Shown here: piece after piece, positions 1,200 to 28,342 of the stretch
Layout of the letters: every line of letters begins with the position of its first letter
How positions within the stretch are numbered: the stretch's first letter is position 1
NCBI RefSeq assembly: GCF_003790525.1
Contig: NZ_CP033635.1
From: Escherichia coli
GTDB lineage: Bacteria > Pseudomonadota > Gammaproteobacteria > Enterobacterales > Enterobacteriaceae
Reading direction: 5' to 3' (one strand)
Length of the DNA: 64,000 bases
Made by a program: the position numbers and the translations under genes
The notes under the pieces: model-generated
Told to the model about the DNA's origin: nothing
What the model saw: only the letters and a program-made list of their open reading frames with translations
Database searches by the model: none

Positions 1200-1650
1200 A
1201 TGCTCAGGTGGCCAAATTCAGTATGCCAGAACCAGAACATCTTGTGGTCAGGCAGAGGAAGAGCAAACTGTTACTGGACTCACTGCATGCGTGGATGGTG
1301 GAGAAAAATGCCACGCTGTCCAAAAATCCAGACTGGGAGAATGGTTCAGCTGTGTACTGAATCAGTGGGGCGCACTCTGTTATTACAGTGTTGACGGTCA
1401 GGCGGAGGCAGACATAATGCCGCGGAAAAAGCCCTTTGTGCCATCTGTCTCGGAAATAAAAACTTTATGTTCTTCGACGGCGAGCGCAGTGCACTGTTGT
1501 ATGGGCTTATCGGCACTTGCCTTCTGAACGACATTGATCCGGAAGAGTATCTGCGCCATATCCTGAGCGTACTGCCGGAATAACCTTCCAACCGTATTGA
1601 TGAACTCCTGCCATGGAACGTAGTTCTCACCAATAAATAAGCATCAATAT
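1200..1650 (+). mobile_element. IS66-family transposase (TnpC) 3' remnant, frameshifted
   Basis: Frames give LLLDSLHAWMVEKNATLSKNP, GNKNFMFFDGERSALLYGLIGTCLLNDIDPEEYLRHILSVLPE and NRIDELLPWNV, matching the C-terminal region of IS66-family TnpC across at least two frameshifts. Confidence 0.5.
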
Positions 1651-9194: not shown

Positions 9195-9764
9195 TCAACT
9201 CCGGCTACAGCCAAAATTGCGCTCACCGGTGCAGTGAGCTTTGGTATGTTCCTTCGCCAGATAGTCAGCACGTTCCAGCACCTGCTGAAAGCCAGTGTCA
9301 TCATCGCGTTCCAGCCACACCGCCGGCCAGGCCGGAAAATGCACCAGCGTGGCATGGCACCCGACATCCACTCCCAGGGCACTGCACCACGCCTGTTTAA
9401 TCATCCCGGCCAGTGATCCCGGAGCACGGTAATCACCGGCACGACACCAGGTATCCCGGTTAACCAGCAGCATCAGGTGATAGTGTTTTTTACCTTTGCA
9501 CTCCCCAAACTCCCGGGCCCAGACGTAATGCAGGGTTGTGGGATGCACGCGTTTACCTTCCCGATGCTTACGTTTCTGGTAAGCGTCGATTCGGGCTTTC
9601 AGGGCATTGATGAAGCGGGATATCACAGCTGCGTCCGTTGCTGCCGGTACATCCGGGAAACGCAGGTCAACCCGCAATGCCGTCAGGCGGGGATGAACAT
9701 TCAGTGCGTGCCGCACCGTCTCACGAATACGTTGCTGCCAGAAGGGGTTGTATTTGTAGGTCAT
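9195..9764 (-). CDS. YfjJ/YagK-family (inovirus Gp2-like) prophage protein
   Basis: N-terminus MTYKYNPFWQQRIRETV... recalled as the YfjJ/YagK family of CP4-type prophages; ATG at 9764 preceded by ggag; an upstream GTG at 9800 is an alternative start. Confidence 0.6.
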   Translation of the reverse strand: MTYKYNPFWQQRIRETVRHALNVHPRLTALRVDLRFPDVPAATDAAVISRFINALKARIDAYQKRKHREGKRVHPTTLHYVWAREFGECKGKKHYHLMLLVNRDTWCRAGDYRAPGSLAGMIKQAWCSALGVDVGCHATLVHFPAWPAVWLERDDDTGFQQVLERADYLAKEHTKAHCTGERNFGCSRS

Positions 9765-11117: not shown

Positions 11118-11130
11118 CCCCCCCCCCCCC
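11118..11130. repeat. Homopolymeric C13 tract
   Basis: 13 consecutive C residues, about 165 bp upstream of the alpA-like start. Confidence 0.9.
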
Positions 11131-11294: not shown

Positions 11295-11501
11295 ATGGCT
11301 ACCCCAGTTTCGCTGATGGATGACCAGATGGTCGACATGGCGTTTATCACTCAACTGACCGGCCTAACCGATAAGTGGTTTGACAAACTCATCAAAGATG
11401 GGGGCTTTCCTGCGCCCATCAAAATGGGGCGCAGCTCCCGCTGGCTGAAAAGTGAAGTGGAAGCCTGGCTGCAGGCGCGTATTGCACAGTCCCGTCCGTA
11501 A
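11295..11501 (+). CDS. alpA: AlpA-family prophage transcriptional regulator
   Basis: 69-aa product MATPVSLMDDQMVDMAFITQLTGLTDKWFDKLIKDGGFPAPIKMGRSSRWLKSEVEAWL matches the AlpA/Phage_AlpA HTH family; ggagg RBS 8 nt upstream. Confidence 0.7.
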   Translation: MATPVSLMDDQMVDMAFITQLTGLTDKWFDKLIKDGGFPAPIKMGRSSRWLKSEVEAWLQARIAQSRP

Positions 11502-17213: not shown

Positions 17214-17256
17214 ATCCCCCGCCACCTTTCCGGTGCGCGGGGTTTTGTCTTTTTTC
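17214..17256 (+). terminator. Putative rho-independent terminator
   Basis: GC stem (cccgc ... gcggg) followed by ttttgtctttttt, just after the 387-aa ORF. Confidence 0.45.
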
Positions 17257-17271
17257 ACCGGGAATACATGT

Positions 17272-18144
17272 ATGAATCCGTCTGATGCCATTGAGGCAAT
17301 TGAAAAACCGCTCTCCTCCCTGCCTTACTCACTTTCCCGTCACATCCTGGAACATCTGCGCAAACTCACCAGTCACGAACCCGTGCCTGGCATTATGGGT
17401 AAAAGCGGGGCCGGTAAATCCTCACTCTGTAATGCGCTGTTTCAGGGGGAGATCACCCCGGTCAGTGATGTTCACGCCGGCACCCGGGAAGTGCAGCGCT
17501 TCCGTCTGAATGGCCATGGTCACAGCATGGTTATCACTGACCTGCCCGGGGTGGGCGAGAGCCGGGACAGGGATGCAGAGTATGAAGCCCTGTACCGTGA
17601 CATTCTGCCCGAACTGGACCTGGTACTGTGGCTGATTAAAGCCGATGACCGTGCCCTGTCTGTGGATGAGTATTTCTGGCGACACATCCTGCACCGGGGA
17701 CATCAGCGGGTACTGTTTGTGGTGATGCAGGCCGATAAAACGGAGCCCTGCCATGAATGGGATATGGCCGGTATTCAGCCTTCTCCCGCACAGGCACAGA
17801 ACATTCGCGAAAAAACGGAGGCGGTATTCCGTCTGTTCCGGCCCGTACATCGGGTTGTTGCCGTATCGGCCCGCACCGGCTGGGAACTGGATACGCTGGT
17901 CAGTGCGCTCATGACAGCACTTCCCGACCATGCCGCCAGTCCCCTGATGACCCGCCTGCAGGACGAGCTGCGCACGGAATCTGTCCGCGCTCAGGCCCGT
18001 GAACAGTTTACCGGTGCGGTGGACCGGATATTTGACACGGCGGAGAGCGCCTGTATTGCCTCTGTTGCACGCACGGTTCTGCGTGCCGTCCGTGACTCGG
18101 TGGTCTCTGTTGCCCGCGCGGTATGGAACTGGATTTTCTTCTGA
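17272..18144 (+). CDS. YeeP/YfjP/YkfA-family prophage GTPase, apparently intact
   Basis: P-loop GKSGAGKSSLCNALF and G3 DLPGVGES; family recalled from CP4-44/CP4-57/CP4-6; start set at the ATG giving MNPSDAIE (ORF extends upstream to a GTG). Confidence 0.8.
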   Translation: MNPSDAIEAIEKPLSSLPYSLSRHILEHLRKLTSHEPVPGIMGKSGAGKSSLCNALFQGEITPVSDVHAGTREVQRFRLNGHGHSMVITDLPGVGESRDRDAEYEALYRDILPELDLVLWLIKADDRALSVDEYFWRHILHRGHQRVLFVVMQADKTEPCHEWDMAGIQPSPAQAQNIREKTEAVFRLFRPVHRVVAVSARTGWELDTLVSALMTALPDHAASPLMTRLQDELRTESVRAQAREQFTGAVDRIFDTAESACIASVARTVLRAVRDSVVSVARAVWNWIFF

Positions 18145-18261
18145 ACCCGGTGGTGATGTACCAGGCTGTTGTTACAGATTTTTAACTCCATGAAAACACT
18201 ATGCAAACGCAGCCATACCCGGGTTGTCCCCTTGCGTTGTGTTTCTCAAGTTAATAGAATG

Positions 18262-18305
18262 CATCGATCGTTACTATCATATCGATCGTTATAAACGATC
18301 GTTTG
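18262..18305. promoter_or_regulatory. Cluster of three CGATCG-core repeats upstream of the dynamin operon (putative operator)
   Basis: catcgatcgtta (18262-18273), atcgatcgtta (18281-18291), and the 12-bp perfect palindrome aaacgatcgttt (18294-18305); 57 bp upstream of the dynamin start. Confidence 0.3.
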
Positions 18306-18361
18306 TAGTAAATGACCTCCTCCGTGGTTGTCATGAAAATGCGTCTTAGGAAGGTTAAATA

Positions 18362-20758
18362 ATGCACGAAAAGAACATCGCCCTGCTTTGTGATGAAGCC
18401 GACCGACTTTTGCAACTGAACATTAATCTGCTCCGGCAAATGGTTGAGGAGCCAGATGTGTTATCTGACAGTAAGAACGAAAACAGACTGCTTTTTGATA
18501 AACAGAAAGCACTGAAAAGAATTGAGGAGCTGGAGGGCGAACAAATCAAAACCGCCCGCAGGGAGATGGTGCTGGCTGTTGTCGGCACGATGAAAGCAGG
18601 CAAATCAACCACCATCAACGCCATTGTGGGGCAGGAAATTCTGCCTAACCGTAACCGCCCCATGACCTCTGTACCGACGCTCATCCGCCACGTTCCCGGA
18701 AAAACTGAGCCGGTTCTCCATCTGGAACATATTCAGCCTGTCCGCAATTTATTAATCACACTGCAGGAAAAACTCGCCACCCCGGCAGGACAGCAGGTCG
18801 CACAGACCCTGCAGCAAACCGGGGATACCCGCGAACTGCTGGATATTCTGACGGATGATGGCTGGCTCAAAAATGAATACCACGGGGAGGAGGAAATCTT
18901 TACCGGACTGGCATCGTTAAACGATCTGGTTCGTCTTGCTGCGGCAATGGGGACTGAATTTCCTTTTGATGAATACGCAGAAGTGCAGAAACTGCCGGTG
19001 ATCGACGTGGAATTCAGCCATCTGGTGGGGATGGATGCATGCCAGGGAACACTCACACTGCTGGATACCCCCGGCCCTAATGAGGCCGGACAACCGCAGA
19101 TGGAAGTGATGATGCGGGATCAACTGCAGAAAGCCTCTGCGGTTCTGGCTGTGATGGATTACACCCAGATGAACTCAAAAGCGGATGAAGACGTCCGTAA
19201 AGAGCTTAATGCCATTGCTGACGTATCAGCCGGCCGCCTGTTTGTACTGGTCAATAAATTTGATGAGAAAGACCGCAATGGCGATGGGGCAGATGCCGTA
19301 CGCCAGAAAGTTCCGGCAATGCTGAACAGCGATGTGCTGCCCGCCTCCCGCGTTTATCCCGGATCCTCACGCCAGGCATACCTGGCTAACCGTGCGCTTC
19401 ATGAGTTACGGAAAAACGGAACCCTTCCTGTTGATGAAGCCTGGGTCGATGATTTTATCAGAGGTGCCTTCGGTTGCATGAAAAAAGAATACGTCTGTAA
19501 AGACAGTGAACTGGCAACTGAAGGGGCGACAGACCTGTGGGAAGGCTCACTTATCGATCAACTGATAACGGAAGTCATACAGAGCTCACATTCCAGAGCT
19601 GCGGCACTGGCGGTTGACTCTGCCGCCGCAAAACTGATGCAGAATGCAGAAAATATCAGTGAATACCTGTTGTTACGCCATCAGGGGCTACAGCAAAGCA
19701 TTCAGTCACTGCAGTCGCATATCACCAGCCTGCTTGCGGATATCCGGGAAATCGCGGACTGTCAGGAGCAGATGACCACTGATGTCAGAATGGCCATGGA
19801 GGAGATCGATACTAAAACCCGGGAATTACTGACGGGGGTCTGCACCTCACTGGAAGAGGAGCTGAATGACTATTTCAGAAGCGGTAAACGCAAAGAACAG
19901 CAAATGCTGGAGGAAGAAGACGCAGAACAACGAAGGTCTCAGTCCGGATTATGGGGGAAAATTTCTCAATGGTCCGGTATCAACAACCAGGGCCGGGAGG
20001 ATTACAGGAAACGAGATTTTGCCCCGGACAGCCCCGAAATAAAATTCAGTGATCGCAGGGAAGCCCTTGAACTGATGACGCAAATCGAATCGACCGTGAC
20101 CAGCCTGCACCGTGAGGCTGAAGCACAGTTCCGGCCTGAGCTGGAGAAAATCGTCAGCGGGATTGAAACAGGTTTTCGTGGCACGGCCCTGTACGCCACA
20201 GAAAACATTGCCGGTCGCATCAATGCCCGCCTGGAGGATGAGGGCTTTACCGTAAAAATCAGTTTTCCGGCAGTCAGCCAGTTACAGACCCGGCTCGCGG
20301 TAAAAATAAATCTGAGTGCGCTTATGGAGGAAAGAACGGAGACCGTCACCCGTCGCCGTCGGCAGAGTGGCGTATGGGGAACCGTTTGTCGATGGTTTGG
20401 CACCAGTGACCTGGGCTGGGAAAACTATGACGAGGATGTGAGTCGCAGCGTGATCAATATCAACAAGGTCAGAGAGGAAGTTATGTCACTGACCCGGGCA
20501 TATTTCGGGGAGCTGCAGGCATCCATTGAGCAGGATATTAACCAGCCCGTCCGCCAGGAAATCGATGCCTTTTTCTGCGCATTCAGGGAGAAAGTTGAAC
20601 AACTGCGTAACACGCTGATTCAGAGCTCTGAAGATCATAAACGCGATCAGCAGGCGCAGGAACGGCTTACCGGGCGACTTCAGGCATTAAATGAAAGGGT
20701 TCCTGAGCTCATTACTGACAGTAAGGCGCTGAGGGAAGAGCTGGAGACAATGCTGTGA
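18362..20758 (+). CDS. Bacterial dynamin-like GTPase, CrfC/YjdA-like
   Basis: 798 aa; G1 GTMKAGKST, G3 DTPGPNE, G4 NKFD; N-terminal block REMVLAVVGTMKAGKSTTINAIVGQEILPNRNRPMT matches E. coli CrfC as recalled; long helical C-terminal stalk; RBS aggaagg. Confidence 0.9.
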   Translation: MHEKNIALLCDEADRLLQLNINLLRQMVEEPDVLSDSKNENRLLFDKQKALKRIEELEGEQIKTARREMVLAVVGTMKAGKSTTINAIVGQEILPNRNRPMTSVPTLIRHVPGKTEPVLHLEHIQPVRNLLITLQEKLATPAGQQVAQTLQQTGDTRELLDILTDDGWLKNEYHGEEEIFTGLASLNDLVRLAAAMGTEFPFDEYAEVQKLPVIDVEFSHLVGMDACQGTLTLLDTPGPNEAGQPQMEVMMRDQLQKASAVLAVMDYTQMNSKADEDVRKELNAIADVSAGRLFVLVNKFDEKDRNGDGADAVRQKVPAMLNSDVLPASRVYPGSSRQAYLANRALHELRKNGTLPVDEAWVDDFIRGAFGCMKKEYVCKDSELATEGATDLWEGSLIDQLITEVIQSSHSRAAALAVDSAAAKLMQNAENISEYLLLRHQGLQQSIQSLQSHITSLLADIREIADCQEQMTTDVRMAMEEIDTKTRELLTGVCTSLEEELNDYFRSGKRKEQQMLEEEDAEQRRSQSGLWGKISQWSGINNQGREDYRKRDFAPDSPEIKFSDRREALELMTQIESTVTSLHREAEAQFRPELEKIVSGIETGFRGTALYATENIAGRINARLEDEGFTVKISFPAVSQLQTRLAVKINLSALMEERTETVTRRRRQSGVWGTVCRWFGTSDLGWENYDEDVSRSVININKVREEVMSLTRAYFGELQASIEQDINQPVRQEIDAFFCAFREKVEQLRNTLIQSSEDHKRDQQAQERLTGRLQALNERVPELITDSKALREELETML

Positions 20759-21660
20759 CTTCACCATTTATTCAACAAATTGCTGATAACCGGGTATGTC
20801 AGGTACTCACCTGTCTTCCTGAAAAATTTGTGGTTGATTTCGCAAACGGAATCGATGTTGCACAGGAGCATATCCGCACGGCCGGAGAGCGCACGTTCTT
20901 CCGGCGTTTAAAAGAGGGGCTGACCGGCGAAGGCGCTGCACGGCAGAATGCCATCAATGCGTCGCTTGCACAGGGCGTTGAGGCGTCCCTGCGCTGGCTG
21001 ACGGAGATGACAACGTCACTTGCCACCACAAACTACGCGATTACCCGGGTAAACGACAGGGTCAGTTCACTGGTCAGTGATACAGCCAGGCTGGCGCATT
21101 ATTCCGCAGATACGCGGGAGCAGTTACTCACCCTGGCCGATCAGGTTCACCATAAACTGAATCATCTTGAAGAAAAACTCCACCGTGTTGACCAGGTTCA
21201 GCGGGCGCAGTTACATCTTGAGCAGATATTCTCATGGTGGAGCGCCGGGCGATATGCGTCATTTTCCCCTGCCGGACGTTGTTATGTGGCACTTGAAGAG
21301 CTTCGCTGGGGCGCGTTTGGTGATGTGATACGTCAGAGCGAAACAGGCCAGGTTAACCAGCTACTGGATATTCTCAGACATAAAGCATTAACGCAGATGG
21401 CACAGGAGAGTGGCGGTAGTGCAACCGTGCGTCTGAACACTCTGGACTGGCTTGGTGGTCAGGGCCGGGAGCAGGCAGATAACGAGTGGCATGACGCGAT
21501 TAACTGGCTGGGAGACTGGTGCAGTGAAGAGCAGCATCCGGTGATCTGGTCAACCACGCAGGCTGCAGAACACTTACCGGTTCGCATGCCTCGCCTCTGC
21601 TCTGCAGAACGCCTCTCTGAAAGTATGGTCGATGAAATATTTCAGAAGGGGGCTGCATGA
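20755..21660 (+). CDS. Dynamin partner protein (YjcZ-like, by synteny with crfC-yjcZ)
   Basis: 301-aa ORF; GTG start overlaps the dynamin stop (GTGA); mostly helical; family assignment rests on position, not recalled sequence. Confidence 0.7.
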   Translation: MTSPFIQQIADNRVCQVLTCLPEKFVVDFANGIDVAQEHIRTAGERTFFRRLKEGLTGEGAARQNAINASLAQGVEASLRWLTEMTTSLATTNYAITRVNDRVSSLVSDTARLAHYSADTREQLLTLADQVHHKLNHLEEKLHRVDQVQRAQLHLEQIFSWWSAGRYASFSPAGRCYVALEELRWGAFGDVIRQSETGQVNQLLDILRHKALTQMAQESGGSATVRLNTLDWLGGQGREQADNEWHDAINWLGDWCSEEQHPVIWSTTQAAEHLPVRMPRLCSAERLSESMVDEIFQKGAA

Positions 21661-22727
21661 GTACAGAAATGAAAACGGGGCTGGTGCTGTCCGGTGGCGG
21701 GGCGGTGGGCGCTTATCAGGCGGGAGTGGTTAAGGCACTGGCAGAGTGTGGTACACAGATCAGCATGGTTTCAGGGGCCAGCATTGGCGCATTCAATGGT
21801 GCCATTATCGCGGCCTCTACCGATCTGTCAGAAGCTGCCGTACGCCTGGAGGCGCTCTGGGATCATCTGGGGAATAATCAGGTGCTGTCGGTAAACAGAT
21901 TGGTTTACTTTTCATTGCTGAAAAAATTGTTCCAGGCAATGAACCTCTGCCAGATCCCCGGACGTGCAGGAGCACTGCTTACGACGCTTCTTCGCCATAT
22001 ATCGACAATCAACGGGTTTGACAATCTGATGGCTCAGCCGTTGTTGTCAGATGAGCCCCTGACAGCGCTGATGGATCATTATCTTGATACTGATGCTCTG
22101 GCAGACGGGCTACCGCTGTATGTGTCGCTGTACCCCACAGAAGGGGGCATGCAGGATATTATTGACTGCATTCGTGCTGAACTGGGTGTCGGAACCACGA
22201 AAAACGCCGTTTTTCAGCATATCCAGAGCCTGCCCCGCGGACAGCAGAAAGAGGCTCTGCTTGCGTCAGCCGCGCTGCCCCTGCTGTTCCGTCCCCGTGA
22301 GGTTCAGGGGACAATGTTCGGTGATGGTGGTATGGGAGGATGGCGAAATATGCAGGGAAATACCCCTGTGACGCCTCTGGTCGATGCCGGATGCAATATG
22401 GTGATTGTGACGCATCTGAGTGACGGTTCTTTATGGGATCGCCAGGCTTTTCCGGACACCACAATCCTTGAGATCCGTCCCCGGAAAAGGCTGAAATATG
22501 CAGGTGATGGTGGCAACAGCGGCGGTCTGCTCAGTTTTACATCGGCACATACCGACGCCTGGCGTCAGCAGGGCTATGAAGACACGATGCTGGCGATGGA
22601 GCATATCCGGAAACCGCTGGCAGCACGTCAGGCACTGACCCGGTCAGAGGCGGTATTGCAGAAAAGCCTGGATATAACGGAAGAGGCAGATTTGGCACTG
22701 AGAAACGCGATGGCCCGGATTAAATAA
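21657..22727 (+). CDS. Patatin-like phospholipase
   Basis: 356 aa; Gly-rich oxyanion SGGGAVGAYQAG, lipase GxSxG as GASIG, catalytic Asp in FGDGGM; ATG overlaps the upstream stop (ATGA). Confidence 0.85.
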   Translation: MSTEMKTGLVLSGGGAVGAYQAGVVKALAECGTQISMVSGASIGAFNGAIIAASTDLSEAAVRLEALWDHLGNNQVLSVNRLVYFSLLKKLFQAMNLCQIPGRAGALLTTLLRHISTINGFDNLMAQPLLSDEPLTALMDHYLDTDALADGLPLYVSLYPTEGGMQDIIDCIRAELGVGTTKNAVFQHIQSLPRGQQKEALLASAALPLLFRPREVQGTMFGDGGMGGWRNMQGNTPVTPLVDAGCNMVIVTHLSDGSLWDRQAFPDTTILEIRPRKRLKYAGDGGNSGGLLSFTSAHTDAWRQQGYEDTMLAMEHIRKPLAARQALTRSEAVLQKSLDITEEADLALRNAMARIK

Positions 22728-24112: not shown

Positions 24113-24148
24113 CAGGCCGCGTCTTCTCCGGGAGACGCGGCTTTTTTC
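24113..24148 (+). terminator. Rho-independent terminator
   Basis: gccgcgtcttctcc / ggagacgcggc hairpin followed by ttttttc. Confidence 0.6.
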
Positions 24149-24192: not shown

Positions 24193-25013
24193 ATGCGATT
24201 AGCCAGTCGTTTTGGTTATGCTGCAAACCAGATACGCCGTGACCGTCCGCTGACACATGAAGAACTGATACGCCATGTACCCAGTATTTTTGGGGAAGAC
24301 CGGCACATCTCCCGCAGTGAACGGTATGCGTACATTCCCACCATTACCGTCCTGGAAAATCTGCAGCGGGAAGGCTTTCAGCCGTTCTTCGCCTGCCAGA
24401 CCCGTGTGCGCGACCCGGGCCGCCGGGGATACACAAAACACATGCTGCGTCTGCGGCGGGCCGGAGAGATAAACGGAGAACATGTCCCTGAAATTATTCT
24501 GCTCAACTCTCATGACGGTACCTCCAGCTACCAGATGCTGCCGGGTTACTTCAGGTTCGTCTGCCAGAACGGGTGCGTCTGTGGCCAGTCTCTGGGGAAG
24601 TGCGTGTTCCACACCGGGGAAATGTAGTGGAGAAAGTTATCGAAGGGGCTTACGAGGTGGTGGGCGTGTTTGACCGGATAGAGGAGAAGCGTGATGCCAT
24701 GCAGTCGCTGGTCCTGCCGCCACCGGCACGCCAGGCGCTGGCACAGGCGGCACTGACTTACCGTTATGGTGACGAACATCAGCCCGTCACCACCGCCGAC
24801 ATTCTGACGCCGCGACGCCGGGAGGATTACGGTAAGGACCTGTGGAGCGCATATCAGACCATCCAGGAGAATATGCTGAAAGGCGGGATTTCCGGTCGCA
24901 GTGCCAGAGGAAAACGTATCCATACCCGGGCCATTCACAGCATTGATACCGACATTAAGCTCAATCGCGCATTGTGGGTGATGGCAGAAACGATGCTGGA
25001 GAGCCTGCGCTGA
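24193..25013 (+). pseudogene. DUF932 (YfjQ-like) prophage protein, frameshifted
   Basis: N-terminal part (24193-24627) and C-terminal part (24573-25013) both match YfjQ as recalled but lie in different frames; break near 24590-24625. Confidence 0.75.
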
Positions 25014-25094
25014 TGCCGTTTCCCTGAGTGAGGGAATCATTCAGCTTTCGTTCCTGAAAAACACACATTTATTTGTTATTTAAGGAGTTATCTC

Positions 25095-25574
25095 ATGAAA
25101 ACCGTTTCTCAGAATACCCCCACAATTTATTCAGCTACAACACCAGAGAATAATCCGCCTCAGTTGGTTGCCAGCCTCGTCCCTGATGAACAGCGCATCA
25201 GCTTCTGGCCGCAGCATTTTGGCCTCATTCCACAGTGGGTGACCCTGGAGCCCCGTGTCTTCGGCTGGATGGACCGTCTGTGCGAAGACTACTGCGGTGG
25301 TATCTGGAATCTGTACACCCTGAACAACGGCGGGGCATTTATGGTACCCGAACCGGATGACGATGATGACGAAACATGGGTACTGTTCAATGTCATGAAC
25401 GGTAACCGCGCTGAAATGAGCCCGGAAGCCGCCGGCATTGCTGCCTGTCTGATGACGTACAGTCATCATGCCTGTCGTACAGAGTGTTATGCCATGACGG
25501 TCCATTATTACCGGCTGCGGGATTACGCCCTGCAGCATCCGGAATGCAGCGCCATTATGCGCATCATCGACTGA
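25095..25574 (+). CDS. Anti-restriction protein, ArdB/KlcA (YfjX-like) family
   Basis: 159 aa; conserved position before the RadC-like gene in CP4-type islands; acidic DDDDDE stretch; RBS aaggag. Confidence 0.75.
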   Translation: MKTVSQNTPTIYSATTPENNPPQLVASLVPDEQRISFWPQHFGLIPQWVTLEPRVFGWMDRLCEDYCGGIWNLYTLNNGGAFMVPEPDDDDDETWVLFNVMNGNRAEMSPEAAGIAACLMTYSHHACRTECYAMTVHYYRLRDYALQHPECSAIMRIID

Positions 25575-25589
25575 ATGGAGAGAAGCACA

Positions 25590-26066
25590 ATGCAACAACT
25601 TTCCTTTCTGCCAGGAGAGATGACGCCCGGCGAGCGCAGCCTCATTCTGCGGGCCCTGAAAACCCTGGACCGCCATCTTCATGAACCCGGCGTGCCCTTC
25701 ACCTCCACCCGTGCGGCACGGGAATGGCTGATTCTGAACATGGCGGGACTGGAGCGTGAAGAATTCCGGGTGCTGTATCTGAATAACCAGAATCAGCTGA
25801 TTGCCGGTGAAACCCTCTTCACCGGCACCATCAACCGCACGGAAGTCCATCCCCGGGAAGTGATTAAACGCGCCCTGTATCACAATGCCGCTGCCGTGGT
25901 GCTGGCACACAATCACCCGTCCGGTGAAGTCACACCCAGCAAGGCAGACTGCCTTATCACGGAACGTCTGGTACAGGCACTGGGCCTGGTGGATATCCGG
26001 GTGCCGGACCATCTGATAGTCGGTGGCAACCAGGTTTTCTCCTTTGCCGAACATGGTCTGCTTTAA
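25590..26066 (+). CDS. yeeS: RadC-like JAB/MPN-domain protein (YeeS/YfjY/YkfG family)
   Basis: JAMM motif HNHPSG; start set at MQQLSFLPGEMTPGER with ggagag RBS (ORF extends 5 codons upstream). Confidence 0.85.
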   Translation: MQQLSFLPGEMTPGERSLILRALKTLDRHLHEPGVPFTSTRAAREWLILNMAGLEREEFRVLYLNNQNQLIAGETLFTGTINRTEVHPREVIKRALYHNAAAVVLAHNHPSGEVTPSKADCLITERLVQALGLVDIRVPDHLIVGGNQVFSFAEHGLL

Positions 26067-26128
26067 CCCGTCACAACCACATCACACCTGTTTTCACTTT
26101 TATCTTCTGTCTTCAGAGGTATCCCATT

Positions 26129-26350
26129 ATGAAAATTATCACCCGTGGCGAAGCCATGCGTATTCACCGTCAGCATCCGGCATCCCGTCTTTTTTCGTTC
26201 TGTACCGGCAAATACCGCTGGCACGGCAGTGCTGAGGTTTATACCGGTCGTGAAGTGCAGGATATTCCCGGTGTGCTGGCCGTGTTTGCCGAACGCCGTA
26301 AGGACAGTTTTGGTCCGTATGTCCGGCTGATGAGCGTCACCCTGAACTGA
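26129..26350 (+). CDS. yeeT: YeeT-family (DUF987) protein
   Basis: 73 aa MKIITRGEAMRIH...YVRLMSVTLN matches K-12 YeeT as recalled. Confidence 0.85.
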   Translation: MKIITRGEAMRIHRQHPASRLFSFCTGKYRWHGSAEVYTGREVQDIPGVLAVFAERRKDSFGPYVRLMSVTLN

Positions 26351-26423
26351 GTGGGAATTCTGATGAGCAGAATTATCGCCACTACCGGACCATTCTTAGC
26401 CGATTTTCTGTAAGGATTTTATC

Positions 26424-26792
26424 GTGTCAGACACACTCCCCGGGACAACACTTCCCGACGACAATCACGACCGCCCCTGGTGGGGGCTGCCCTGCACCGT
26501 GACGCCCTGTTTCGGGGCACGTCTGGTGCAGGAGGGTAACCGCCTGCATTACCTTGCCGACCGCGCCGGTATCAGAGGCCTGTTCAGCGATGCAGATGCG
26601 TACCACCTGGACCAGGCCTTTCCGCTGCTGATGAAACAACTGGAACTCATGCTCACCAGCGGTGAACTGAATCCCCGCCATCAGCATACCGTCACGCTGT
26701 ATGCAAAAGGGCTGACCTGCAAAGCCGATACCCTCAGCAGTTGTGGTTACGTTTATCTGGCTGTTTATCCGACGCCCGAAATGAAAAATTAA
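26424..26792 (+). CDS. cbeA: Type IV antitoxin CbeA (YeeU)
   Basis: 122 aa MSDTLPGTTLPDDNHDRPWWGLPCTVTPCFGARLVQEGNRLHYLADRAGIRG... matches CbeA as recalled. Confidence 0.9.
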   Translation: MSDTLPGTTLPDDNHDRPWWGLPCTVTPCFGARLVQEGNRLHYLADRAGIRGLFSDADAYHLDQAFPLLMKQLELMLTSGELNPRHQHTVTLYAKGLTCKADTLSSCGYVYLAVYPTPEMKN

Positions 26793-26880
26793 CTCTCCAG
26801 AATAGCCTTCTGCTACGGCCTGGTGTTTTCACCACGCCACTTTTCCATTTTTATATCTGCATATCAGGAAAATCTTCAGT

Positions 26881-27254
26881 ATGAAAACATTACCTGTATT
26901 ACCCGGGCAGGCGGCCAGTTCTCGCCCGTCTCCTGTTGAAATCTGGCAGATACTGCTGTCCCGACTGCTGGACCAGCACTATGGCCTCACACAGAATGAC
27001 ACACCTTTTGCCGATGAACGTGTGATTGAGCAGCATATTGAGGCAGGCATTTCACTGTGTGATGCGGTGAACTTTCTCGTGGAAAAATACGCGCTGGTGC
27101 TACCGACCAGCCGGGATTCAGCGCCTGTACCCGCTCTCAGTTAATAAACAGCATCGATATCCTCCGGGCTCGCAGGGCGACCGGCCTGATGACCCGCGAC
27201 AATTACAGAACGGTAAATAACATTACCCTGGGTAAGTATCCGGAGGCGAAATGA
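26881..27254 (+). pseudogene. cbtA: Toxin CbtA (YeeV), frameshifted
   Basis: First 73 residues match CbtA, then the frame ends at 27144; the expected C-terminus INSIDILRARRATGLMTRDNYRTVNNITLGKYPEAK is in another frame (27150-27254); consistent with a single-base deletion near 27103. Confidence 0.8.
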
Positions 27255-27445
27255 TGACACTGGAAGCCGACAGCGTTAACGTACAGGCGCTGGATATGGG
27301 GCACATTGTCGTTGACATTGATGGTGTTAATATCACTGAACTGATTAATAAGGCCGCTGAAAACGGTTATTCACTCCGCGTGGTGGATGACCGTGACTCT
27401 ACCGAAACACCGGCAACTTATGCCAGCCCTCACCAGTTGCTGTAA
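27251..27445 (+). CDS. yeeW: YeeW-like small protein
   Basis: 64-aa ORF overlapping the cbtA stop, in the position of K-12 yeeW. Confidence 0.45.
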   Translation: MMTLEADSVNVQALDMGHIVVDIDGVNITELINKAAENGYSLRVVDDRDSTETPATYASPHQLL

Positions 27446-27850
27446 GACAATGCAGTGATGCAGGGTATAGTGCCATTAACCACAGAAACAGCACTGTTGT
27501 CCTGTATTAAGCAGGCAAGAGAAGATGTCCTTACCCTGCGCCATCTGCAGCTTCTGCACCAGAACCGGTGAATCTCACTCAACAGGCTTCATTTCCCCTG
27601 ACGCCAGCCTGAATACAGCTGGCGTTTTCATTTATAAACAGAAAGGAAAACCGATAATAATGGAATGGACGCCCCGACCATGAAGCAACGGTAGGATATT
27701 ACTGATAAACCTTCCAGTGGAGGTGCGTTATGGCCGTTTTAACGATTAGCATTGACCTGACAAAAAATGAATTCCAAATCCACGGTCTGGGTAGGAACAG
27801 AAAAATCTAAGCTCAGAAAACGGATTAAAGTAAGCGTCAACGGAGCACCA

Positions 27851-27985
27851 TATTGACGCTTATTTATTGGTGAGAACTACGTTCCATGGCAGGAGTTCGT
27901 CAACACGGTTGGAGGGCCATTCCGGCAGTATGCTCAGAATATGGCGCAGATACGCTTCCGGATCGATACCGTTCAGACGGCAGGT
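27851..27985 (-). mobile_element. IS66-family terminal remnant (~135 bp), inverted relative to the 1200-1650 copy
   Basis: About 88% identical by eye to the reverse complement of 1515-1650 (ttatttattggtgagaactacgttccatggcaggagttc...). Confidence 0.45.
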
Positions 27986-28029
27986 GCCTGCTTTTCCGGC
28001 AACAAGCAGGAATCTCAGCGCTGAAGCAG

Positions 28030-28242
28030 GAATTAGAGGTAAAAACGCCCTACCGGGCCATGAATCACCCGGTCATTGGAGTAGTAACCAAAGCAGATTT
28101 AGCCAGCATGGAACAAATATCTTTGGTGAAATGTTGGTTACGGGAAGCTGGAGCGCACAACGTGTTAGTAACCAGTGCGGTTAATAACAATGGAGTTACA
28201 GAACTTTTTGCCTTGCTGCATACAGAAGAAGGCTGCCGCTAA
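28030..28242 (+). pseudogene. yoeF: PduV/EutP-like fragment (yoeF-like)
   Basis: C-terminal PVIGVVTKADLASMEQISLVKCWLREAGAHNVLVTSAVNNNGVTELF resembles EutP/PduV; N-terminus missing; position matches K-12 yoeF. Confidence 0.45.
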
Positions 28243-28342
28243 TTTCGATAGGTTCTCAGATGAGAATGATGACGGTGATACACAGATAAGAATCAATGAG
28301 CAATGAGGGTTGCCGGGCAACCCTCATTGAATAAAACAGGAA

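Follow-up and report, generated by a model that had tools for sequence, protein, structure and literature searches.

Two frameshifted genes, cbtA and a DUF932 gene, in the CP4-44-type toxin-antitoxin module of an Escherichia coli chromosome

The module and its two broken genes

The window considered here, a whole stretch of 64,000 nt from Escherichia coli (assembly GCF_003790525.1, contig NZ_CP033635.1), holds a run of genes on the plus strand in the order DUF932, ArdB, RadC/yeeS, yeeT, cbeA, cbtA and yeeW, with cbtA and cbeA encoding a type IV toxin and its antitoxin. Two members of the run, the cbtA toxin gene and the DUF932 gene, have each lost a single base. Taken as a whole, the explanation that we favor, at a probability of about 0.85, is that the chromosome holds a CP4-44-type cryptic island whose conserved right-hand module is the region at issue, and that the two frameshifts are unrelated one-base deletions without a coordinated 'selective decay', as had been proposed in a first-pass annotation of the same DNA.

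Genes were assigned from a listing of open reading frames (ORFs), reading of the window sequence and a Pfam profile search. The alleles were then compared with 5426 complete E. coli genomes through k-mer counts, with a catalogue of ~15 billion proteins, and with metagenome contigs, the latter scanned by exact pattern for the DUF932 forms with four (G4) or five (G5) consecutive G. The relatives inspected were seven loci, six complete genomes (SMS-3-5, ECONIH1, KFu014, 4621, Rb-50, O157:H7, ATCC 11775), representing phylogroups F (SMS-3-5, ECONIH1, KFu014, 4621), E (O157:H7) and B2 (ATCC 11775), while Rb-50 has a background near-identical to that of the window.

The identity of the locus rests on synteny with CP4-44 of strain K-12 and with the annotated relatives, as well as on a Pfam match for every gene of the module. 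Indeed, yeeS-yeeT-cbeA-cbtA-yeeW occupy the right end of the island with the same flank as in K-12, the module adjoining tmaR (yeeX)-yeeA-sbmC-dacD, with sbcB, the his operon and O-antigen and colanic-acid genes further downstream. Across the right junction, yeeW through tmaR and yeeA are 98.7-100% identical to K-12, and sbmC and dacD 97.7-98.3%. The remainder of the island contains many other pseudogenes and insertion sequence (IS) fragments. The two lesions and the genes that they interrupt are as follows.

26881..27254, plus strand: cbtA (yeeV) toxin pseudogene, with a frame-0 product of 87 aa composed of 73 native and 14 out-of-frame residues
27100..27101, plus strand: one-base deletion in cbtA, the G of codon 74 (CGT), placed by alignment with K-12 cbtA; not a homopolymer
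24193..25013, plus strand: DUF932 (YfjQ-like) gene, broken at codon ~135 of 273 into two ORFs in different frames
24594..24597, plus strand: GGGG run with a private one-base deletion, GGGGG in all close relatives

In cbtA, GTGCGTACC of K-12 has become GTGCTACC, the base being lost between 27100 and 27101, so that GTG CGT ACC now reads GTG CTA CC. This places the deletion 2-3 bases away from the position near 27103 first given for it. Frame 0 runs over 26881-27144 and ends at a stop codon at 27142-27144, and the coding sequence for the C-terminal 50 residues lies in a different frame, which reaches its stop at 27252-27254. The deletion costs the last 51 of 124 residues, and the 87-aa ORF matches only positions 1-73 of the 112 of PF06755 (1e-36), short of the full-length toxin of ~124 aa. 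The full-length toxin, which inhibits FtsZ and MreB, would consequently not be made.

The surrounding genes of the module are intact, each with a full-profile match to its Pfam family, which includes cbeA, ArdB and the RadC-like gene, reported as intact at the outset:

25095..25574, plus strand: ArdB/KlcA-type antirestriction gene, intact (PF03230, 1.1e-36, profile positions 1-92 of 92)
25590..26066, plus strand: yeeS, RadC-like JAB domain, intact (PF04002, 1.7e-44, profile positions 2-121 of 121; WP_012311619.1 in relatives)
26129..26350, plus strand: yeeT (DUF987), intact (PF06174, 1.3e-39; annotated in relatives)
26424..26792, plus strand: cbeA (yeeU), type IV antitoxin of 122 aa, intact (PF06154, 4.3e-53, profile positions 1-100 of 101)
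27251..27445, plus strand: yeeW, DUF5983 N-terminal domain, intact (PF25638, 2e-29; annotated in relatives)
24114..24143, plus strand: terminator-like hairpin with a 13-pair stem, 8 of the pairs GC, and then a T run, upstream of DUF932

The DNA of the ArdB-type gene is identical to that of SMS-3-5, where it is annotated as WP_000860090.1. The antitoxin gene lies directly upstream of cbtA on the same strand with an 88-bp spacer, as in a CbtA/CbeA pair; it is annotated as WP_001285585.1 in relatives, and the exact protein is found on at least 1000 contigs. The hairpin may mark the start of the transcription unit of the module, and the promoter and terminator scan of the region yielded nothing informative besides it. 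A scan at Rfam gathering thresholds returned no RNA family within 24-28 kb; its matches in the rest of the window were His_leader, STnc240 and JUMPstart.

The yeeW ATG overlaps the original cbtA stop (ATGA at 27251-27254). Because the truncated cbtA frame ends 107 nt before this ATG, ribosomes would stop ahead of it and translational coupling to yeeW would be lost. Between yeeW and tmaR (27446-28342), the annotation of relatives shows nothing but fragments, namely remnants of DUF957 and of a transposase domain besides a short EutP/PduV-like ORF (yoeF-like). The ORF following DUF5983/yeeW, an AntiFam entry, has been argued to be possibly genuine and joined to DUF5983/yeeW by frameshifting (2026, PMC13294457).

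Distribution of the cbtA deletion

The deleted form of cbtA is common in the species. A 61-mer across the deletion is found exactly in 1503 of the 5426 complete genomes (~28%), including SMS-3-5, O157:H7 and ATCC 11775, and a 62-mer of the intact gene in 1815. The gene is base for base the same as in the window in SMS-3-5 and ATCC 11775, and O157:H7 carries one single-nucleotide polymorphism (SNP), resulting in L38 instead of Q38. All seven loci of the relatives hold the deleted cbtA at the same tmaR-yeeA-sbmC locus, labelled 'frameshifted' by the Prokaryotic Genome Annotation Pipeline (PGAP), together with intact cbeA, yeeT, yeeS, ArdB and DUF932. The exact 87-aa product is present on at least 1000 contigs (for example ABJ01408.1 and ACB17009.1 in GenBank), as is its L38 variant.

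Metagenome contigs extend the picture. One of them, L021 (OCAA01000271.1, ~9339-9709), has the same cbtA deletion in a different flank context, adjoining a cbeA region ~91% identical to that of the window and a different downstream gene. As these flanks differ from those of the window, the deleted allele has moved between island variants. Another contig, L011 (~1227-1600, minus strand), contains a related cbtA copy with a different frameshift near codon 86, an independent inactivation of a CbtA-family toxin.

Sequencing error, suggested early on as the alternative for both frameshifts in the form of a homopolymer artefact, was considered and rejected for cbtA: there is no homopolymer at the site, and the deletion is common to assemblies of many origins as well as a metagenome contig. 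For DUF932 the same alternative is about as likely as a real mutation. Aggregated, the comparisons show the cbtA deletion to be a genuine, inherited pseudogene allele, population-wide across phylogroups B2, E and F.

The block of cbeA, cbtA and yeeW (26351-27445) is unusually uniform, only 2-4 differences in 1095 nt separating phylogroups A, B2, E and F, against ~1% in the core flanks and 2-5% in yeeS and yeeT just upstream. Together with the mosaic L021 contig, this uniformity suggests that recombination or gene conversion spread cbeA-cbtA-yeeW, as opposed to a deep vertical decay. The combination of a cbtA pseudogene with a retained antitoxin is already known and annotated, and is nothing new; with the pseudogene annotated in over a thousand reference genomes, the observation in itself carries little biological weight.

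The DUF932 frameshift

The DUF932 gene is, as first described, split across two frames, with one ORF at 24193-24627 (144 aa) and another at 24573-25013 (146 aa) in place of a single one. With one further G in the run at 24594-24597, the gene again encodes 273 aa, a protein without any difference from the intact DUF932 protein of SMS-3-5 (WP_001234504.1) and with a match to PF06067 of 1.2e-51 over profile positions 2-227 of 227. Comparison with alleles of other strains, which had been proposed as a check, thereby confirms both one-base losses, through the intact cbtA of K-12 and the intact DUF932 of SMS-3-5.

In a global alignment across 3401 bases, SMS-3-5 and ECONIH1 differ from the window by the lost G and nothing else. 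Over the segment 24100-27500, more than 40 complete genomes match at '100.0%', and all top 40 matches span 3402 bases compared to the 3401 of the query. A 41-mer able to seed on the G4 form alone was recovered in 5 of the 5426 complete genomes, one match being exact, and the carriers are unrelated strains or paralogous copies; the exact match is to a paralogous DUF932 gene beside Ag43 in strain 2012C-4606 (NZ_CP027352.1; 3121-3938 of the extracted locus, L009), again 'frameshifted' according to PGAP. The exact-pattern scan of the metagenome contigs gave 0 matches for the G4 form and 29 for the G5 form, and neither the 144-aa nor the 146-aa fragment is among the ~15 billion catalogued proteins, while the intact protein occurs on 999 contigs. 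As the one difference from the closest genomes, and without a counterpart in proteins and metagenome contigs, the change from GGGGG to GGGG is private to this assembly, and the G5 run itself is a site of rare recurrent indels or errors.

The change arose as a short run of G slipped by one base, be it in the strain or during sequencing and consensus calling, and the latter, with the gene intact in the living strain, is given even odds. Indeed, a one-base deletion in a G homopolymer that is found in this assembly only, and in none of the more than 40 near-identical genomes, the metagenome contigs or the 15 billion proteins, fits a dropped base, and the other G4-like genomes are few, scattered and unrelated, as recurrent calling errors would look. 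One leftover homopolymer deletion per 40-60 kb is moreover within the range of long-read-only assemblies. On the other hand, the assembly is not generally indel-prone. Across 37 kb the window differs from KFu014 and from 4621 by 4 SNPs each and the DUF932 indel, with, for KFu014 only, an additional length change in a tract of 13 C at 11118-11130; of 205 homopolymers of at least 5 bases in these 37 kb, just these two differ from relatives. The core genes over the 64 kb (his operon, gnd, ugd, wzzB, the wca genes, yeeA, dacD and sbcB) are likewise all full length, and a real mutation would also be in keeping with 37 kb that hold 2 private SNPs besides the one private indel. If real, the deletion splits the domain mid-way and inactivates the gene; pending read data, the DUF932 frameshift is to be treated as unverified.

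A phase-variable contingency locus was also considered for DUF932. Such tracts usually comprise 7 or more bases and often vary in length among close relatives. With a tract of only 5 G, and the G4 state in 5 of 5426 genomes, this candidate was discarded.

The 13-C homopolymer is located ~165 bp upstream of a gene for a helix-turn-helix regulator (ATG at 11296), and its length differs by one base in either direction among otherwise near-identical genomes (KFu014, Rb-50). The tract may be hypermutable or assembly-sensitive.

Over positions 1-37 kb, the window is nearly identical to genomes of phylogroup F that are ST648-like, 4-5 differences apart, and no complete RefSeq genome is identical. The his/O-antigen/colanic-acid region (39001-64000) reaches at best 99.1% identity to any complete RefSeq E. 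coli genome. The strain thus appears to be a recombinant in the O-antigen region without a representative among complete RefSeq genomes.

Antitoxin retention, the truncated toxin and known systems

Two co-selected decays in one module are not supported, since the cbtA allele is population-wide and the DUF932 allele is private. The notion of 'selective decay' thus holds only insofar as a toxin gene is broken beside a kept antitoxin gene; the word 'selective' is not borne out, the island is eroded in general and the two events are unrelated. Similarly, toxin loss with antitoxin retention, put forward as a common domestication pattern, describes cbtA/cbeA at all seven loci and agrees with published accounts (PMC10790755), while DUF932 falls outside it. 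More generally, neighboring frameshifts do not make one evolutionary story without a population comparison.

Several points weigh against the explanation that we prefer. The loss of toxin activity in the 87-aa product is an inference, and the product retains both R15 and F65. Tan et al. are said to have observed, in 2011, that a C-terminally deleted YeeV still elongates cells. The uniformity of cbeA-cbtA-yeeW is not obviously what is expected of a long-dead pseudogene, and for DUF932 a real mutation and a homopolymer error are about equally likely.

Why cbeA has been kept may be understood from what is known of the K-12 proteins. CbeA neutralises CbtA by stabilising and bundling FtsZ and MreB polymers, without binding to the toxin (Heller et al. 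2017, PMC5624674), and protects also against other FtsZ inhibitors (PMC5624674); antitoxins of paralogous systems moreover cross-neutralise (Wen et al. 2017, PMC5371832). As CbeA acts on the polymers and not on the toxin, it would be harmless alone and could persist for that reason, and it may still act as a buffer against paralogous toxins of the CbtA family encoded elsewhere, the closest genomes holding 1-5 copies of the module. Retention of cbeA could therefore be useful or simply harmless.

A stronger version, which we regard as possible yet rather doubtful, is adaptive domestication, in which selection removed the toxin and actively maintains cbeA, along with ArdB and RadC, for a benefit to the host, for instance the neutralisation of CbtA-family toxins from paralogous modules or the stabilisation of FtsZ/MreB under stress. 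Congruent with this, cbeA is intact beside a dead toxin gene in 7/7 loci of relatives from phylogroups B2, E and F, the exact CbeA protein recurs on at least 1000 contigs, 1-5 module copies exist in close relatives, and a cbtA copy was frameshifted independently near codon 86 in the L011 contig. The cross-neutralisation between paralogous antitoxins (PMC5371832), the general protection against FtsZ inhibitors (PMC5624674) and the large number of orphan antitoxins in E. coli, documented in a survey of 950 genomes (PMC10790755), all agree with it. However, recent spread by recombination would account as well as constraint for a cbeA-cbtA-yeeW block that is nearly identical throughout, pseudogene included, only 2-3 nt differences separate cbeA between phylogroups, which is too little variation for a test of selection, and an island full of fragments and IS elements speaks for general erosion.

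It is unlikely that the 87-aa CbtA is still expressed as a toxin, attenuated or altered, which would explain both the kept cbeA and the common allele. Residues 1-73 are preserved and match the Pfam CbtA_toxin profile at positions 1-73 (1e-36), and the start codon and upstream region are the same as in the K-12 allele. Among the preserved residues are R15 and F65, which are sensitive to substitution and linked to, and needed for, the interaction with MreB and FtsZ (Heller et al. 2017, PMC5624674). Nevertheless, 39 of 112 conserved profile positions are gone, with 14 unrelated residues in their place, PGAP calls the gene a pseudogene, and variants of the 87-aa product in the population show non-conservative substitutions of various kinds, R15H among them, a spectrum that would be consistent with relaxed constraint but proves nothing. 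A solved CbtA structure, by which to judge the truncation and whether the fragment can fold, was searched for and none was found. The fuller proposal, that a toxin attenuated in this manner with R15 and F65 kept would be maintained together with cbeA, and would account for the ~28% frequency and for the near-absence of further decay in the block, we consider slightly less likely still.

Programmed -1 ribosomal frameshifting at one or both sites, still giving full-length protein, is highly improbable: a -1 shift is what both sites would require, a P-site slip on CTG GGG A in DUF932 would recreate the exact wild-type sequence and many genomes share the conserved cbtA allele, but no canonical X XXY YYZ heptamer lies within the overlaps 27063-27144 or 24516-24627, the ancestral and majority forms each read as one uninterrupted ORF, the Rfam scan showed neither a frameshift element nor any other RNA family in 24-28 kb, and the DUF932 change is private, leaving at most low-level leaky slippage as at any such mutation.

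The preferred explanation, two unrelated deletions in a CP4-44-type module, can be placed against systems already described. The CbtA/CbeA (YeeV/YeeU) pair of CP4-44 in K-12 occupies the same locus as that of the window, with the same yeeS-yeeT-cbeA-cbtA-yeeW order. Compared to K-12, cbeA of the window is 99.2% identical, and cbtA differs by 1 SNP and the deletion, leaving 73 native residues only. In place of the DUF932-ArdB of the window, K-12 CP4-44 has flu-yeeR, and the window also diverges from K-12 in the left part of the island, with genes for dynamin, RdcB and patatin-like proteins.

That left part comprises an operon-like run at 17233-22727, encoding a YeeP-like GTPase, a 798-aa dynamin-family protein, an RdcB-family protein and a patatin-like phospholipase. 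The dynamin-family, RdcB-family and patatin-like genes overlap start to stop; again, flu-yeeR is what K-12 CP4-44 contains instead.

Among the relatives, the 'frameshifted' cbtA of SMS-3-5, ECONIH1, O157:H7 and ATCC 11775 has the same deletion as the window, with the 87-aa product identical to ABJ01408.1/ACB17009.1. SMS-3-5 and ATCC 11775 exhibit no cbtA difference from the window, whereas their DUF932 is intact and that of the window broken. Paralogous CP4-type modules (YkfI/YafW of CP4-6 and YpjF/YfjZ of CP4-57; yfjQ-yfjX-yfjY) have the same architecture as the module of the window, namely DUF932, antirestriction, RadC, DUF987, antitoxin and toxin, and their toxins have the same targets (PMC5624674, PMC5371832). 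They reside elsewhere on the chromosome, and the toxins of the K-12 paralogs share only 58-62% identity with CbtA (PMC5624674). Finally, the window resembles the orphan antitoxins of E. coli (PMC10790755) in keeping an antitoxin gene without a functional cognate toxin. Surveys that score cbtA by presence will put the number of functional type IV toxins too high in roughly a quarter of E. coli, and it is here that the window departs from typical orphan antitoxins: the remnant of the toxin gene is still present and nearly intact, so that gene-presence pipelines would score a complete pair.

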